Of a stretch of 64,000 nucleotides of DNA, positions 12,277 to 38,015 are shown piece after piece. The first letter of the stretch is position 1; each line of letters starts with the position of its first letter. The DNA lies in the sequence record MT764208.1. One strand, 5' to 3'. Source of the DNA: Escherichia phage JEP8. The notes below the pieces were generated by a model that had not been told where the DNA came from, made no database searches, and worked only from the letters and a program-made list of their open reading frames with translations. A program made the translations under genes and the position numbers.

Positions 12277-13746
12277 CTATTCCCCATTACCATTATACTT
12301 TCTTTGCTTAGTTATCCACACTCTAACCATCTCTACTGATTCACCGTCAGACGGATCAAGAGTTTTTCCTTTTTTCTTCATGCGATACTTAAATCCGTTA
12401 AATCTTGCATTCTCTTGCTCGTTAAAGTCGAACATCTTTTTAAATGATTTTCTCCCTTTACGCTCACCACATTCTAGCGGAATCATTCGGTCTGTTATTA
12501 CATTGGCATTAGGTAGAAACGTTTTTAGATAATCCACCAACGCCCAATCAGGAACATATAGATTAACATTCTCCTTGCTCTCGTTGTCTCTCAGGTTACA
12601 ACGCAAACATAATTGAAATGCTGGTTCCAGATAATCAGACACATGACGCGCTTTCAAAAACTCGTTTGTCGGGAGATCACAACTATTAGCAAGACCTTTT
12701 AAAATATCAATCTCCCATCGTTGAGGGTTAAAGCTGAACATCACAGCAACATTTTTATGATGAATGTAAGAGTTAAGACCATAAGATCCGTAAGGTATCC
12801 GCTCACCAATACCATTTGTGCACGCTTCACGGTCCCGATTCACGGTATAAATGAAGTCATCGCCACATTCATTTTTAACCATATCAACAAGACGTTCAAA
12901 GGTATTGTTTGTTTCTGACTGGTGACGCGACCAGCGTTCGGAGTCAGTCATAAGGATGATGTTAACTCTATCTGTATTTTTATACTCTTTGAAATATAGT
13001 CTGGATTCTAGCGCACTCGGAACAAAATCGCAATTTGCATAGTATCGTAGATACTTCCCACTATATGTATCAAAGAGATTTGCACATGCTATCGTAACCT
13101 TTTTAAAGTCTCCCCACGTACCGTGTTTGTTATCGTTCAAGAAAACAATTTTCGACCCATTCTTCCGGTGTCCTTCGTTATGTTTTACCATAACGTTGAT
13201 TTTCTTCTCTAATAACGCCTCATAAAGCCCTCTAAGAGAAGAATCGATCATATCAGTACCATCCTTTGCACTTTCTATCTTTTCTTTGATAGCGGCCTTC
13301 TCAGAGTCTTTTAGAACTAAGTTCTGTAGGCATTCCGATTCGTCGGCGATTGGTTCGCAATGCTTCGTGATAAGTTCAAGATTAGACTTAAACGGATACT
13401 CATTAAATTCAACCAGTTGAGGAACTTCATCAATGTAAAGAGCATATTCACCAAACATTTTTGAACGTTCCATATTAGATAACGCTGTATGTGTAATGAA
13501 TATCACATCAGCACCGTCTTTAACTGATTGCATTATCGACGCTTGCACTGTCTTAAGGCTTCTTAGTCTTGTGCTATCGATCAAGACAGCACGACCGCCC
13601 ATTCTTTTAAACTTATTGTAAGATTGTTCACTTAAAACACGAGATGGCGAAGCAATAACCGCTTTTTCTTTTGTCTCTAGGACGTGGGAAAGTATAGCAT
13701 CAGTTTTCCCCGCCGCTGGCAATGCGATTAATGTTTCAATCTTCAT
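12277..13746 (-). CDS. Uncharacterised P-loop NTPase-domain protein (489 aa)
   Basis: N-terminal Walker A-like LPAAGKTD and Walker B-like LYIDEVPQ; no resemblance to T4 alpha-glucosyltransferase despite lying in the 47-55-nrdH interval. Confidence 0.6.
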   Translation of the reverse strand: MKIETLIALPAAGKTDAILSHVLETKEKAVIASPSRVLSEQSYNKFKRMGGRAVLIDSTRLRSLKTVQASIMQSVKDGADVIFITHTALSNMERSKMFGEYALYIDEVPQLVEFNEYPFKSNLELITKHCEPIADESECLQNLVLKDSEKAAIKEKIESAKDGTDMIDSSLRGLYEALLEKKINVMVKHNEGHRKNGSKIVFLNDNKHGTWGDFKKVTIACANLFDTYSGKYLRYYANCDFVPSALESRLYFKEYKNTDRVNIILMTDSERWSRHQSETNNTFERLVDMVKNECGDDFIYTVNRDREACTNGIGERIPYGSYGLNSYIHHKNVAVMFSFNPQRWEIDILKGLANSCDLPTNEFLKARHVSDYLEPAFQLCLRCNLRDNESKENVNLYVPDWALVDYLKTFLPNANVITDRMIPLECGERKGRKSFKKMFDFNEQENARFNGFKYRMKKKGKTLDPSDGESVEMVRVWITKQRKYNGNGE

Positions 13747-14051
13747 TAGAAACCCTTACGTCGTGCTTTCTGGCATTTCTTGATCATTTTATCAGAAATT
13801 TCGCGCTTAGGTGCAAGCTCTTTCACACCGAAAGCACTAATGCCAAATTCAGAGAGAATATATTCAACCAACAATTCACGCACACGCGCTTTACCGATAT
13901 TCACGCCGTTATTTTTCAGATATGTCTGGCCTTCGACTTGCATCAGATCTAAATCAGCGTCGGTAATATTGATTTCTTCCATGCGCCCAAATCGAGAGTA
14001 AACCATGTGTGCGATTGCATTGTGTACTAACATAATATATTCCTCACTCAA
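13746..14051 (-). CDS. Hypothetical protein
   Basis: 101-aa ORF. Confidence 0.5.
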   Translation of the reverse strand: MSEEYIMLVHNAIAHMVYSRFGRMEEINITDADLDLMQVEGQTYLKNNGVNIGKARVRELLVEYILSEFGISAFGVKELAPKREISDKMIKKCQKARRKGF

Positions 14052-14202
14052 GAATTACTTAATGATACTTACTTTACCAGATCCATGACAATGAGCGCAA
14101 CACCCATCACCACGTAATCCTGTTCCGTTACAGTGTTTACACTTCTTCAACGGTAAAGTCATTATAGCAAATAAAGCAATAATGAACACCGAAACTAAAT
14201 TC

Positions 14203-14472
14203 TCAATAATCATAAATCGCCCTCAGTTCTTTATAGCCTCCAATGTGCTCGTTGTCAATGAATATCTGGGGGTATACAAACCGGAGGCTCTTTGAGTTCA
14301 GCCTCCCCGCCAGTTCTTCAATCATATCACGGTCGGGAATAATGTCAACCCCGACCTGCTTGAATACTGGTTTAAGTGTATACGGAATACCCAGATCATC
14401 CAGTAGCTTCATTGCACTAATACAACCATAACAATGATAAGCCTCTTTAGGTATACCGTATATCTCGATCAT
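14203..14472 (-). CDS. Glutaredoxin-like protein (NrdH-like)
   Basis: CxxC motif (CYGC) near the N-terminus, ~89 aa, ...GGY C-terminal region; adjacent to the anaerobic RNR genes. Confidence 0.65.
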   Translation of the reverse strand: MIEIYGIPKEAYHCYGCISAMKLLDDLGIPYTLKPVFKQVGVDIIPDRDMIEELAGRLNSKSLRFVYPQIFIDNEHIGGYKELRAIYDY

Positions 14473-14945
14473 TTCTCAGCCTTTAATCTTTCTAGTTCTT
14501 CTTCCAGTTCCTTGATCCGTTGGTCACGTTCAAAGTCACGCTGTAACTTAGTGGCGAATACTCGTTTAAACTGATTGTAATCATCGATTTTAAACACTTC
14601 TTCTTCGCCATAGCGACGCACAGAAACTTCGTAGTTATTGAAGAATTGTTGCATCATTGCTTCGGATGATAGTTCTGCTGATACTACTTTAAAATATTGA
14701 TCTTCGGTAGGTGAAAACCAATTACAAGCATAAAGATAAACCTTTTCATTGTCTGGACACTGATAAGCCTTACCATCGATTTCAATCACAGAAACATATT
14801 CAGGTATACTGGATGAATCAATAGCTAAGACTTTAAACGCACGGTCCCCGATAAACTCGGAGATCACACGATTCGCATCACTGGTTGCAAATGCTTTACG
14901 CGCTTGTTCGTTTTTCCACTGATAGGTCATACCAACAACAAACAT
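14469..14945 (-). CDS. Hypothetical protein, WEVGKTY-domain paralog family
   Basis: VGMTYQWKNEQARKAF...IEIDGKAY...; C-terminal charged coiled coil (KELEEELERLKAEK). Confidence 0.6.
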   Translation of the reverse strand: MFVVGMTYQWKNEQARKAFATSDANRVISEFIGDRAFKVLAIDSSSIPEYVSVIEIDGKAYQCPDNEKVYLYACNWFSPTEDQYFKVVSAELSSEAMMQQFFNNYEVSVRRYGEEEVFKIDDYNQFKRVFATKLQRDFERDQRIKELEEELERLKAEK

Positions 14946-33865: not shown

Positions 33866-34068
33866 TTACATTTAGGGCAATGCGGTTCTTTAATATAATA
33901 CCCGTCTGTCTTCGGAACACTAACAGGAGCGGTTTTTATATTGTATTCAGTGAAACAACGAAAACAAGTTACGTTTTCTACAGACTGACGTTTCACCCAA
34001 TCACCGGAATATAGATCATTTTTATTTGTCATATTCAACCACCACAATGTTAATGTCTGGAGTAGCAA
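33838..34068 (-). CDS. Hypothetical Zn-ribbon-like protein
   Basis: CFRCF...CPKCKC. Confidence 0.45.
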   Translation of the reverse strand: MLLQTLTLWWLNMTNKNDLYSGDWVKRQSVENVTCFRCFTEYNIKTAPVSVPKTDGYYIKEPHCPKCKCRLYWSHL

Positions 34069-34477
34069 TATTAATGATCTCTTCTACACATTCCCACTCA
34101 AGGCCACCGATACCGCAACCGATTTTAGGAATATAGAAAGGCTGTATAGCACCCTCAAAAACATCATTGAGAGACTCAAATCCTTTCAGGATAGCACCAT
34201 ATTCAGCATTTGGACCCGGTCGGAATTGGGTATAGAGATTCACCCCGCACCAGTTATAACCATTAACTTGATGCGTCCAGATACTAAACCCACCCAACTT
34301 TTCTACCTTACCGCGAGAAGTTTGCTTGTCAATCTCTAACGCTTGCGGGAACTCTTTCGCGATCTTCGCAGCAATACCAGCGCCCATAGTATGAAAACAA
34401 TTACAACCATGAATTAAATGACCGTTTCCTTGTTTAAACAGGGCGATGAGATCGCCCTTTACAGTATCAATAATCAT
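34022..34477 (-). CDS. Macro-domain protein (TARG1/OARD1-like ADP-ribose-processing fold)
   Basis: GDLIAL...HGCNCFHTMGAGIAAKIAKEFP...PKIGCGIGGLEWECVEEII resembles the TARG1-type macro domain pattern. Confidence 0.6.
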   Translation of the reverse strand: MIIDTVKGDLIALFKQGNGHLIHGCNCFHTMGAGIAAKIAKEFPQALEIDKQTSRGKVEKLGGFSIWTHQVNGYNWCGVNLYTQFRPGPNAEYGAILKGFESLNDVFEGAIQPFYIPKIGCGIGGLEWECVEEIINIATPDINIVVVEYDK

Positions 34478-35535: not shown

Positions 35536-35958
35536 TTATTGGTCTACCTTCAAAACAACCGCCGACATTTTACCCGCCAGTCGTTTTGGATTCTCTATAA
35601 TCATTCGGCAGCATAGACCGTGATATGGCTTACCCTCTTCGATTAGATCTACTGTCATCCCGATCCACATGTTACCGTCAGTAATTTCTAATCGATTAGG
35701 TCGGTCTTCCATTTTCAGGAAGTCGAAGATCTCCGGCAAACGAGTTTCTATCTTATTGAATAGTTCCATTGTCTTATGTTCATCGATATGACGATCGGTT
35801 AGACGGTCGATCATATGCGGACTAAAGCGAATGAAAATATACTCGCCGTAACCATCATTCAAGCACTTTTCTTTGATCTGCGCATTGGTTTTGCGCATTT
35901 CGGTTTCGAAGAATCTACGCAGCTTACTACGGCGAACATGTACGTTAATTGTTTCCAT
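35536..35958 (-). CDS. regB: Endoribonuclease RegB
   Basis: From the internal Met: METINVHVRRSKLRRFFE...RLEITDGNMWIGMTV...CRMIIENPKRLAGKMSAVVLK matches T4 RegB. Confidence 0.8.
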   Translation of the reverse strand: METINVHVRRSKLRRFFETEMRKTNAQIKEKCLNDGYGEYIFIRFSPHMIDRLTDRHIDEHKTMELFNKIETRLPEIFDFLKMEDRPNRLEITDGNMWIGMTVDLIEEGKPYHGLCCRMIIENPKRLAGKMSAVVLKVDQ

Positions 35959-35962
35959 TTTA

Positions 35963-36298
35963 TTATCCTTTCTTAAACAAATTGCGAAGCCAGTATACAA
36001 ACGGGATTTCTTTAAACTTGAACTTGTCAATAGTTAATTCTTTAGTAGCAAGATGAATACCATAAGCATCATGTGTAACTATATGCCATTTTCTATAGTC
36101 CAAATGTGAACAACCGTCTGGATCTAGGTTAATAAGAGTTTCTCGCTCACTAGGATTATTTTTCCACAATTTTGTAATAGGATCGCACATAATTCGACCT
36201 AGCGTACCATGAATAATCTCACAACGGTAAAGTTTTCCAGCAGTGAGATAGGCGCACCCGTCATAGTCGGTATAAACAAACACTTCTTTAACACTCAT
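35963..36298 (-). CDS. Hypothetical protein, DGxCSHL small-paralog family
   Basis: DPDGCSHLDYRKWHIV; start at the ATG with AGGAGTATTAAA leader (the ORF-track start overlaps the promoter). Confidence 0.5.
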   Translation of the reverse strand: MSVKEVFVYTDYDGCAYLTAGKLYRCEIIHGTLGRIMCDPITKLWKNNPSERETLINLDPDGCSHLDYRKWHIVTHDAYGIHLATKELTIDKFKFKEIPFVYWLRNLFKKG

Positions 36299-36355: not shown

Positions 36356-36616
36356 CTACTTTTTCAAGATTTTTTTGATCACATTCCAAAGACCTTTATT
36401 CTCAGGTTGTTTTGGTTCTTCGATCAGTGTCCATGTTCGACCGTCTAAGTGTGCACAATTTTTAAGACAAATAAAAATCTGGTGTCCCTTATCATCACGG
36501 ATATAACCACTATTCGCAAATCTTTCATGTGGTGTATATTCATACAGTGTATTTGGTGTAATATACTTGCGGTTACTATAAGGTGTCATCACATACATCA
36601 TGGTACTAACTCCCAT
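36356..36616 (-). CDS. Hypothetical protein, DGxCSHL small-paralog family
   Basis: GYIRDDKGHQIFICLKNCAHLDGRTWTL. Confidence 0.5.
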   Translation of the reverse strand: MGVSTMMYVMTPYSNRKYITPNTLYEYTPHERFANSGYIRDDKGHQIFICLKNCAHLDGRTWTLIEEPKQPENKGLWNVIKKILKK

Positions 36617-36792
36617 TTATCACCGCGAAGATGAGAACATCCACCATCAAGAAGGATCGTAATACGAAACCCCGCATCATCTTCAATATACCCGATAGTC
36701 GGTGGATGTTCGTCGTCTCGTGCCGGGGTAAAATCATACATCTTCCCCGGTGTGATATCATTGCCTTTATTGCTATTGGTATAAACTTGCAT
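36598..36792 (-). CDS. Hypothetical protein, DGxCSHL small-paralog family
   Basis: GYIEDDAGFRITILLDGGCSHLRGDKWEL. Confidence 0.5.
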   Translation of the reverse strand: MQVYTNSNKGNDITPGKMYDFTPARDDEHPPTIGYIEDDAGFRITILLDGGCSHLRGDKWELVP

Positions 36793-36813: not shown

Positions 36814-37512
36814 CTAACCACGGGTATAGTGTTCCAGAACAACTGTCAGATGAATATATTCTAATAGATCTTTCCAAAAGTCAACATCTGGTTCTTCCGG
36901 CATACCGTTTTTCTTTGCCTCTTCACGAGCGAGTTTAACACGCTCGTAGAGATCTTTCAATTCTTCCCGCACATTATCAAAGGTTCTTTCTCCTAACTTA
37001 CACGCTAAAATCGAAGAACGTCTCGCGAGCGGGAATTGTATATCACCTGTCTGATAGATTTCAAGTAGCTGATAACCAACACGCAGAGCATGAGAAAGAT
37101 CTTTCCAGTTACTGAAATACTTTTCAGATTTGGCTACCTGTTTCTTGAGATAACCAGACAAACCCCACATACCAACATGATAGAATTTATCGCGATGTGT
37201 TCGGATGTATTCCCATTCTCTGGAGGATTCAACCAACATGTTACTAGGCGCGTGCACCATGTCAATAGCACCGATATCGCCTTTACATGCCAGATTGATA
37301 AACCGTTTTAGACTGAACATATTAACGTCAATATCGTCTTTGGTGTTCTTGATACCTTGACCGCTAGTGCTTTGGTCATAGTGTTCTTTCATCGATCCTA
37401 AGATAATTTCTTTCGCAGTCGGAACAAAGATACCACGATAATCTTTATCGGAATTTTCAGTATCAAGGCCGTATAAGTGAGACCCGAAGACCATTTTAAC
37501 CATTGTATGCAT
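36814..37512 (-). CDS. Nucleotidyltransferase-fold protein (Pol-beta superfamily)
   Basis: N-terminal FGSHLYGLDTENSDKDYRGIFV (GS...D.D signature of Pol-beta-type NTases) with a helical C-terminal region; ATG with GAGGGT RBS. Confidence 0.6.
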   Translation of the reverse strand: MHTMVKMVFGSHLYGLDTENSDKDYRGIFVPTAKEIILGSMKEHYDQSTSGQGIKNTKDDIDVNMFSLKRFINLACKGDIGAIDMVHAPSNMLVESSREWEYIRTHRDKFYHVGMWGLSGYLKKQVAKSEKYFSNWKDLSHALRVGYQLLEIYQTGDIQFPLARRSSILACKLGERTFDNVREELKDLYERVKLAREEAKKNGMPEEPDVDFWKDLLEYIHLTVVLEHYTRG

Positions 37513-37598
37513 AATTAAACCCTCAGTTGATTAAGAGATTGCATCATACCATCATAAAAATAAAAAGCCAACCCTTTTCGGATTGGCTTGATGAAAAA

Positions 37599-38015
37599 TT
37601 AGAGAGATTCGGTAAAGGTACGAGCGATAACATCACGTTGCTGGTCTGGAGTCAGACTATTGAAGCGCACTGCGTAACCAGAAACGCGAATTGTAAGCTG
37701 CGGGTACTTCTCAGGATGTTCAACAGCGTCCAGCAACATTTCTCGTAACAATACATTAACATTCAAATGCTGACCACCTTCGACAACCGGAGCACCATTA
37801 TCTACAATGACAGGACGGAAGCTAGTTGTGTGCAGTGCCAGCGAATCGACGTCTTCTGCGGTGATCACATGGTCTTCTGCGAAAGTTTTACTAACAATTA
37901 CTTTAGCACCGATCAGTGCTTTCGGTTCGGATACCAGAATCATAGGCGCGAAGTGTCCACCAATAATAGTACCTTTATGCTCACCTTTCATGATTTGAAT
38001 TGCTTTAAATTCCAT
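37599..38015 (-). CDS. Autonomous glycyl radical cofactor (GrcA/YfiD-like)
   Basis: C-terminal [61 protein letters not shown] nearly matches E. coli YfiD, including the RVSGY glycyl-radical motif. Confidence 0.85.

Follow-up and report, generated by a model that had tools for sequence, protein, structure and literature searches.

NrdC.11 of Escherichia phage JEP8, an insert-less RlaP-family nucleotidyltransferase with a possible role in RNA repair

The 64,000-nucleotide (nt) stretch of Escherichia phage JEP8 DNA analysed here (sequence record MT764208.1; hereafter the window) carries on its minus strand, at 36814..37512, the Krischvirus gene nrdC.11, an ATG-initiated open reading frame (ORF) of 232 codons plus stop. 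Its product of 232 amino acids (aa; 27.0 kDa; pI 6.5) is a Pol-beta nucleotidyltransferase (NTase) of the PF10127/RlaP family. Taking family, activity and a repair role broadly together, we favour on balance the view that NrdC.11 modifies RNA 3' ends as a template-independent NTase and, alongside Pnkp and Rnl1, counters nucleotide-excising ribotoxins of the host. Membership in the RlaP family is almost certain. Transfer of nucleoside monophosphates (NMPs) to RNA 3' ends by this particular protein is probable, by analogy with its relatives, and a specific counter-ribotoxin repair role, whose in vivo substrate and link to a ribotoxin are inferred, is advanced tentatively.

The gene itself is already known. 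The 3.6 kb around it share 97-98% identity with about 58 Krischvirus genomes, including kaaroe, GEC-3S, Phi1 and RB49; the RB49 counterpart, RB49p098, bears the gene name nrdC.11 and the product name 'nucleotidyltransferase', and public databases hold the gene at 99% identity. Given this conservation, the RB49 name and the match to NrdC.11 of phage T4, it is an annotated gene in a described family, and its naming is routine annotation. We found a single unreported detail, namely that Krischvirus naturally has a version of T4 NrdC.11 without the insert. The residual value of the gene is as an experimental handle on the phage RlaP hypothesis, since it is so far only predicted that a third phage enzyme, one that restores nucleotides, counters 'smart' ribotoxins such as RloC.

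Family assignment

A sequence-only reading of this DNA had placed a 232-aa protein at this position, and the ORF list and a check of the sequence bear this out, adding the strand, which had been left unstated. The same reading quoted the motif FGSHLYGLDTENSDKDYRGIFV as the start of the protein. The motif is present, but the N-terminus reads MHTMVKMVFGSHLYGLDTENSDKDYRGIFV, and the quoted stretch begins at residue 9, after MHTMVKMV. The Pol-beta signature proposed there is also found (GS, SDKD and DDID), and the Pfam and PHROG matches together with the homologue counts exclude a chance motif. The protein scores 54.2 bits (E value 2.2e-14) against PF10127 (RlaP, 'RNA repair pathway DNA polymerase beta family'), for which the curated gathering cutoff is 23, and residues 7-191 align to profile positions 24-198 of 249. 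It also matches phrog_388, 'nucleotidyltransferase', with an E value of 1.7e-79. Its nearest homologues are all carriers of PF10127. Based on the PF10127 match and the orthology to T4 NrdC.11, the general Pol-beta assignment is sharpened to RlaP/NrdC.11.

The family has a wide viral distribution. Homologues were found by tblastn in 1599 phage records, among them T-even-like phages infecting many hosts as well as phages of Mycobacterium, Gordonia and Bacillus, while an exhaustive phmmer search returned 3570 cluster representatives at E<1e-3 and a fold search of BFVD added jumbo phages, giant viruses and the baculovirus protein HE65. Many of the T4-type NrdC.11 homologues that carry PF10127 (among them P0016, P0020, P0035 and P0041; H28, H29 and H31) are labelled 'thioredoxin' in GenBank or UniRef, and 'HNH homing endonuclease' is the label of one. 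These labels look like a propagated misannotation whose origin is the gene name nrdC.11 or the genes nearby.

Other families were tried and rejected. PF10127 was the sole Pfam or NCBIfam match at E<=1, with none to the family of CCA-adding enzymes and poly(A) polymerases (PF01743), and the NCBIfam scan of the protein matched no model. Membership in the antibiotic NTase families (ANT/KNTase/AadA/Lnu) was not found by Pfam or NCBIfam. A CD-NTase or cGAS-like role of the CBASS type, or an anti-signalling role, found no support: PADLOC gave no CD-NTase match and Pfam only PF10127; cGAS, DncV and CD-NTase were likewise absent from the top 50-60 fold matches. The PADLOC scan as a whole contained no significant defence-system match, its sole line being CARF/HEPN at E=0.037. 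PDB sequences were searched at E<=10 with the protein alone and with a profile of 147 sequences; both searches gave chance matches only, and therefore no solved sequence relative exists among the PDB sequences searched.

Predicted fold and catalytic motifs

The AlphaFold2 model of the 232-aa protein is very confident (predicted local distance difference test, pLDDT, 95.6; predicted template-modelling score, pTM, 0.91). It comprises two domains, in agreement with the helical domain that the sequence-only reading had placed after the NTase signature. The N-terminal NTase domain (residues 1-96; 37225..37512, minus strand) is built from beta 2-9, alpha 11-14, beta 23-30, alpha 33-38, beta 44-48, beta 61-67, alpha 68-76, alpha 80-86 and beta 93-95. 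In the C-terminal domain (residues 97-232; 36817..37224, minus strand) the model has only helices between residues 98 and 230, namely 98-105, 107-110, 113-127, 136-155, 165-172, 178-201 and 210-230. The structure prediction that had been suggested as a check thus gave a confident NTase domain (residues 1-95) followed by a helical one.

The motifs of the family, all of them on the minus strand, are intact. FGSHLYG (37468..37488) contains the hG[GS] nucleotide-binding turn (G10, S11), together with Y14 and G15, which are also at least 90% conserved. SDKD (37441..37452), where beta 23-30 begins, supplies the first two predicted catalytic carboxylates (D22, D24), and the family-specific NTKDDID (37327..37347), where beta 61-67 begins, supplies the predicted third one, D62 (or D60). 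The helical domain includes WKDLSHALR (37081..37107), a conserved basic patch (K137, H141, R144) that, judging from the published description of the PfRlaP structure, would line the cleft for nucleoside triphosphate (NTP) and RNA. Among 147 relatives, residues G10, S11, L13, Y14, G15, S21, D22, D24, P31, N56, D60 and D62, and further D84, W100, Y121, Q125, K137, H141, R144, P161, K172 and G174, are invariant or at least 90% conserved. The motifs GSxxYG, SDxD, KNTKDD[IV]D, D[TW]K..H..R and PxxPD are also common to RlaP-type proteins of about 250 aa from Bacillaceae and from the Planctomycete Zavarzinella.

In the secondary structure of the model, GS lies at the beta1/alphaA turn, the second strand opens with D22 and D24, and strand 61-67 with D60 and D62; the modelled layout is the classical one for Pol-beta. 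Acidic residues that are absent or out of place, named beforehand as the sign of an inactive fold, were not encountered when placement was judged in this way.

Proposed function and its alternatives

The activity ascribed to NrdC.11 is taken, by analogy, from the literature on other family members. Two Pseudomonas RlaPs, PfRlaP and PaRlaP, which are encoded between rtcB and rtcA, have been characterized in a December 2025 preprint that is not peer-reviewed (PMC12776372). Both add one or two NMPs to an RNA 3'-OH from any NTP, and also from dATP, and are inactive on DNA and protein; they prefer Mn2+ as the metal and, as the substrate, the 5' half of a tRNA mimic cleaved at the anticodon, and they partly rescue the aminoacylation of a tRNA that is missing one anticodon-loop nucleotide (PMC12776372). 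The 2.1-A crystal structure of PfRlaP comprises an N-terminal NTase domain and a C-terminal helical domain whose terminal helix packs back on the NTase domain, along with three invariant Asp residues and a basic cleft (PMC12776372). Burroughs and Aravind (2016), as they are cited in PMC12776372 and PMC7824862, predicted that these NTases put back, ahead of ligation, the nucleotides that RNA ends have lost, an example being repair after RloC removes the wobble base; the name RlaP stems from that comparative-genomic work and reflects the association of the genes with those for RNA ligase and RNA end healing.

The N-terminal Pol-beta domain of NrdC.11 would bind an NTP and a divalent metal via G10-S11 and D22, D24 and D62 (or D60), and the cleft between the NTase and helical domains, lined by K137, H141, R144 and K172, would hold the 3'-OH end of a broken RNA, to which one or two nucleotides would be added without a template. 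In the textbook case of phage RNA repair, that of T4, Pnkp and Rnl1 act against PrrC. In the proposed pathway, Pnkp would first remove the 2',3'-cyclic phosphate or 3'-phosphate, NrdC.11 would add nucleotides, and Rnl1, which needs a 3'-OH, would seal the break; the net result would be the return of nucleotides to tRNAs that had been cut and trimmed by host RloC-like nucleotide-excising anticodon nucleases. Because Rnl1 is a 5'-P/3'-OH ligase, the chemistry fits better than it does with RtcB, a difficulty raised in PMC12776372 itself. NrdC.11 would then be an accessory enzyme of counter-defence that the phage could do without on permissive hosts, and the Krischvirus protein its minimal, canonical-length form. 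The region from nrdC.11 to mobD.3 of T4 can be deleted (PMC9825161), as expected of an accessory counter-defence gene.

NrdC.11 co-occurs with both proposed partners. In the class of at least 95% identity, which corresponds to Krischvirus, NrdC.11, Rnl1 and Pnkp were each found in exactly 58 records, and the record counts for NrdC.11 and Rnl1 by genus were 606/636 for Escherichia, 285/287 for Klebsiella, 83/83 for Shigella, 75/77 for Aeromonas and 69/69 for Acinetobacter. These near-equal counts are compatible with co-inheritance. In jumbo phages, according to an independent comparative study, the distribution of RlaP mirrors that of the RNA ligases (PMC7824862). Closer linkage was seen in some relatives. 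A homologue of 39% identity (P0113, L089) lies in a cassette of a kinase, an HD+AAA_33 kinase, Rnl1 (PF09511), two small ORFs and RlaP; in another (P0050), Pnkp lies at 4.6 kb and an RNA ligase at 6.5 kb, and a Saccharibacteria metagenome-assembled genome (L074) has an HD-kinase and an RNA ligase no more than 5 kb away. Gordonia phage Kudefre has an RNA ligase, a tRNA cluster and NARP1-like genes close by, and Bacillus phage KLEB27-3 has Pnk and two metallophosphoesterases. Three other phage contigs and Mycobacterium phage Faith1 showed no repair-gene neighbours.

Several points weigh against this proposal. Neither the window nor RB49 has an RNA-repair gene adjacent to nrdC.11, and in RB49 pseT (Pnkp) and rnlA (RNA ligase 1) lie about 75 kb from nrdC.11, outside the window. 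The co-occurrence with Pnkp and Rnl1 in T-even phages is confounded by shared ancestry. Three of the five close relatives sampled were without repair neighbours, and only about five of 80 genome loci matched ten RNA-repair protein queries by tblastn, a lower bound in that the query set was without RtcB, Rnl2 and Hen1; tight repair linkage is therefore not the rule in the clade. The carboxylate geometry was inferred from secondary-structure position only, and the best solved fold match was to an enzyme of DNA synthesis rather than of RNA repair, HalB of Hailong (PDB: 9dbh, 9dbi and 9dbj; TM about 0.45, 12-16% identity), in a library that was searched without the PfRlaP structure. The biochemistry comes from a single source, which itself describes T4 NrdC.11 as an 'RlaP of unknown function', places it in cluster 5 of a sequence similarity network as against cluster 1a for the assayed enzymes, and concedes that the in vivo role of RlaP is unproven (PMC12776372). 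A full-text literature search on nrdC.11, RlaP and PF10127 found no functional study of a phage member.

Of the alternatives, the one that survives best is a general RNA 3'-tailing enzyme for turnover or regulation, which would put 1-2 nt on host or phage RNAs, for example the products of RegB or other RNases or the acceptor ends of tRNAs, and so change their stability or usability without ligation; we consider it unlikely. Any NTP will serve the bacterial RlaPs for labelling rRNA, full-length tRNA and fragments (PMC12776372), and the specificity of RlaP is therefore modest. The gene is unlinked to ligase and Pnkp in T-even genomes, and in Krischvirus it lies upstream of regB at a distance of 0.86 kb and on the same strand. 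The proximity to regB is, however, not conserved, T4 nrdC.11 being about 6 kb off; where tight linkage is present, it is to RNA ligase and end-healing genes, and the characterized RlaPs prefer the nick-proximal 3' end of the cleaved-tRNA mimic over the acceptor end (PMC12776372). A protein or small-molecule NTase, either an AMPylase resembling MNT, DrrA or GlnE or an ANT-like enzyme, which would modify a host factor such as a HEPN-type toxin or a metabolite, is a good deal less likely still. As fold matches, such enzymes score below HalB and 3c18, and their likeness comes from the two-domain plan general to NTases; no sequence-level match was found in Pfam, NCBIfam, PADLOC or PDB, no HEPN partner gene adjoins nrdC.11, and E. 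coli proteins were not labelled by the assayed RlaPs (PMC12776372).

The HalB match raises a further possibility. HalB synthesises a tyrosine-primed, template-independent poly-dA that gates the membrane channel HalA (review PMC13434031). NrdC.11 might by the same token be a template-independent (deoxy)nucleotide polymerase that makes oligo-dA or a like polymer, possibly protein-primed, and serves, for example, as an anti-Hailong decoy synthase whose oligo-dA keeps the HalA channel closed while phage exonucleases destroy that of the host. We regard both the polymerase and its decoy role as very improbable, considering the low identity and TM given above and the lack of a sequence-level relationship; furthermore, the tested PF10127 members add 1-2 nt only, need an RNA 3'-OH and do not extend DNA (PMC12776372), and the structure of PfRlaP, outside the library searched, is probably a much closer match. 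Finally, a decayed, non-catalytic remnant, inactivated in Krischvirus by loss of the insert of about 100 aa, a module found in 142 of 147 close relatives, is hardly credible and was rejected as a pseudogene or degraded form, since the catalytic and cleft motifs are all intact, the sequence is conserved within and beyond Krischvirus (see below), the model is very confident and the canonical bacterial RlaPs are insert-less as well.

Short and long forms

The RNA 3'-end NTase proposed here differs from most of its close relatives in length. The Krischvirus protein has a short linker, KSEKYFSN (residues 128-135; 37108..37131, minus strand), at the site where T4-type proteins carry an alpha/beta insert of 89-130 aa. 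The spacing between K124 and W136 is 11 residues in the Krischvirus protein; among the 147 aligned relatives it is 89-130 residues in 142 and 10-19 in five, the Krischvirus protein included. In the model of a T4-type protein of 336 aa (P0016; pLDDT 94.8), the insert is a folded alpha/beta module within the helical domain (residues ~132-240), in the order helix, five beta-strands, helix. The T4-type module of about 100 aa had no sequence match in Pfam or PDB. The 249-position Pfam profile is collinear with the short forms and needs an insertion state of about 96 residues to accommodate the long form, and bacterial RlaP-type proteins have a linker of 15-20 residues at this site. In architecture, the short form is therefore closer to the characterized enzymes than is T4 NrdC.11.

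In a crude neighbour-joining tree based on the 222 shared columns, the short forms fell in at least three places, each closest to long forms, and two short forms have kept the opening of the insert, KYG[IL]KG. These sequence patterns suggest that the insert was lost repeatedly within the phage clade, independently in at least three lineages. The short form has been kept at 95% identity or more in the 58 Krischvirus records, and at 57% identity in a divergent but syntenic, Krischvirus-like phage contig (P0002/L088), where the gene order is endolysin, vs.8, a small ORF, Gly_radical, an HNH homing endonuclease and RlaP. The insert may tune the choice of substrate, and the 232-aa insert-less Krischvirus protein and the 336-aa insert-bearing T4 protein are a ready-made pair for probing the role of the module in this choice.

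Local gene context

Upstream of nrdC.11, a Shine-Dalgarno sequence GAGGG (37520..37524, minus strand) stands 7 nt 5' of the ATG. A terminator-like hairpin with a 10-bp stem followed by a T-run (37565..37589, minus strand) lies directly 3' of the stop codon of the preceding gene, vs.6, and the annotation of phage GEC-3S lists it as a terminator. Its T-tail, just upstream of nrdC.11, is overlapped by a weak sigma-70-like match with an extended -10, TTGGCT-17-TATGAT with TG (9/12; 37543..37571, minus strand), which is absent from the GEC-3S annotation and is possibly a promoter of nrdC.11's own. On the contig with the divergent short form, the HNH/NUMOD4 homing endonuclease gene (L088 3951-4547) sits at the same place between genes as does the terminator hairpin of the window.

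The three neighbours named in the sequence-only reading were confirmed by Pfam, all on the minus strand. The gene regB (35536-35958; E value 1e-48) lies 0.86 kb downstream of nrdC.11, and the gene for a macro-domain protein (34022-34477; E value 6e-7) 2.3 kb downstream. The glycyl-radical protein is the product of vs.6 (37599-38015; Gly_radical, E value 1.5e-16), located 87 nt upstream, a GrcA/YfiD-like autonomous glycyl-radical cofactor of 138 aa with the C-terminal sequence RVSGYAVRF; T4 vs.6 is annotated alike. Presumably it serves as a replacement part for pyruvate formate-lyase that oxygen has damaged, or for phage NrdD. A functional link of nrdC.11 with the regB, macro-domain and GrcA-like genes on the grounds of proximity was rejected, as the arrangement is not conserved in T4 and the region is hyperplastic.

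Between nrdC.11 and regB there are three small tandem ORFs on the minus strand, of 64 aa (36598-36792), 86 aa (36356-36616) and 111 aa (35963-36298), none of which has a Pfam match. They share the motif ..Y..TP...GYI.DD.G..I.I.L..C[SA]HL.G..W.L[VI]; the 64- and 86-aa ORFs are 40% identical (E value 3e-12), and the 111-aa ORF is related more weakly (E value 0.002). By sequence they look like paralogs of an uncharacterised domain.

Some observations were made on the surroundings of more distant RlaP genes. In Gordonia phage Kudefre (L007 1315-3635) and Bacillus phage KLEB27-3 (L006 5613-8678), the RlaP homologues adjoin genes for proteins like phosphoribosyl pyrophosphate (PRPP) synthetase and nicotinamide/nicotinate phosphoribosyltransferase, a pair which we take to resemble the phage nicotinamide adenine dinucleotide (NAD)-reconstitution pathway NARP1. 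These NARP1-like neighbours suggest that the RlaP genes of the two phages lie in counter-defence neighbourhoods. A 135-kb phage contig with a long-form RlaP (L093) also encodes a WGR+PARP_reg+PARP protein, i.e., one like poly-ADP-ribose polymerase, and a Gad2-family protein (1053-2426 and 13362-14648). Two other RlaP-bearing contigs (L091 12711-16921 and L092 12272-15085) contain 15-20 successive, overlapping same-strand genes of about 70-90 aa, along with many small Lcl_C-domain genes; the runs look like tandemly amplified small-protein arrays.

Comparison with known systems

The likeness of NrdC.11 to HalB is at the level of the fold only, with no sequence homology even by the 147-sequence profile. 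Hailong pairs HalB with HalA, whereas nrdC.11 belongs to a phage genome and no HalA-like gene was seen beside it; its neighbours are the GrcA-like protein upstream and, downstream, small proteins without Pfam matches, which were unscreened for membrane segments. KNTase/ANT(4'), AAD(9), AadA, LinB and Tam41 act on a different class of substrate, and their structural scores were below those of HalB and 3c18.

The ortholog in T4 is NrdC.11 (NP_049709.1, 336 aa), annotated 'nucleotidyltransferase', which belongs to the same Pfam family and shares about 47% identity with the Krischvirus protein over about 222 shared residues (BLASTP E value 2e-50), including the motifs GSHLYG, SDxD, KNTKDxID and WKxLSHAxR. 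The Krischvirus protein, in contrast, is without 106 middle residues, which form one single gap in the alignment. The genes also differ in position, since that of T4 (L096 13436-14446) lies between nrdC.10 and mobD, about 6 kb from regB, whereas that of Krischvirus has vs.6 on one side and the small ORFs near regB on the other, at the place of vs.3-vs.5 in T4.

The bacterial RlaPs resemble the Krischvirus protein in their membership, above threshold, in the same Pfam family, in the order of an N-terminal NTase and a C-terminal helical domain, in the three conserved Asp residues and in having no T4-type insert. They form a clade distant from that of the phage protein and differ in genomic setting, the Pseudomonas genes belonging to rtcB-rtcA operons whereas the phage gene is not next to RtcB, RtcA or a ligase. 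The partner of the phage enzyme would be the 5'-P ligase Rnl1, which is better suited to a 3'-OH product than is RtcB.

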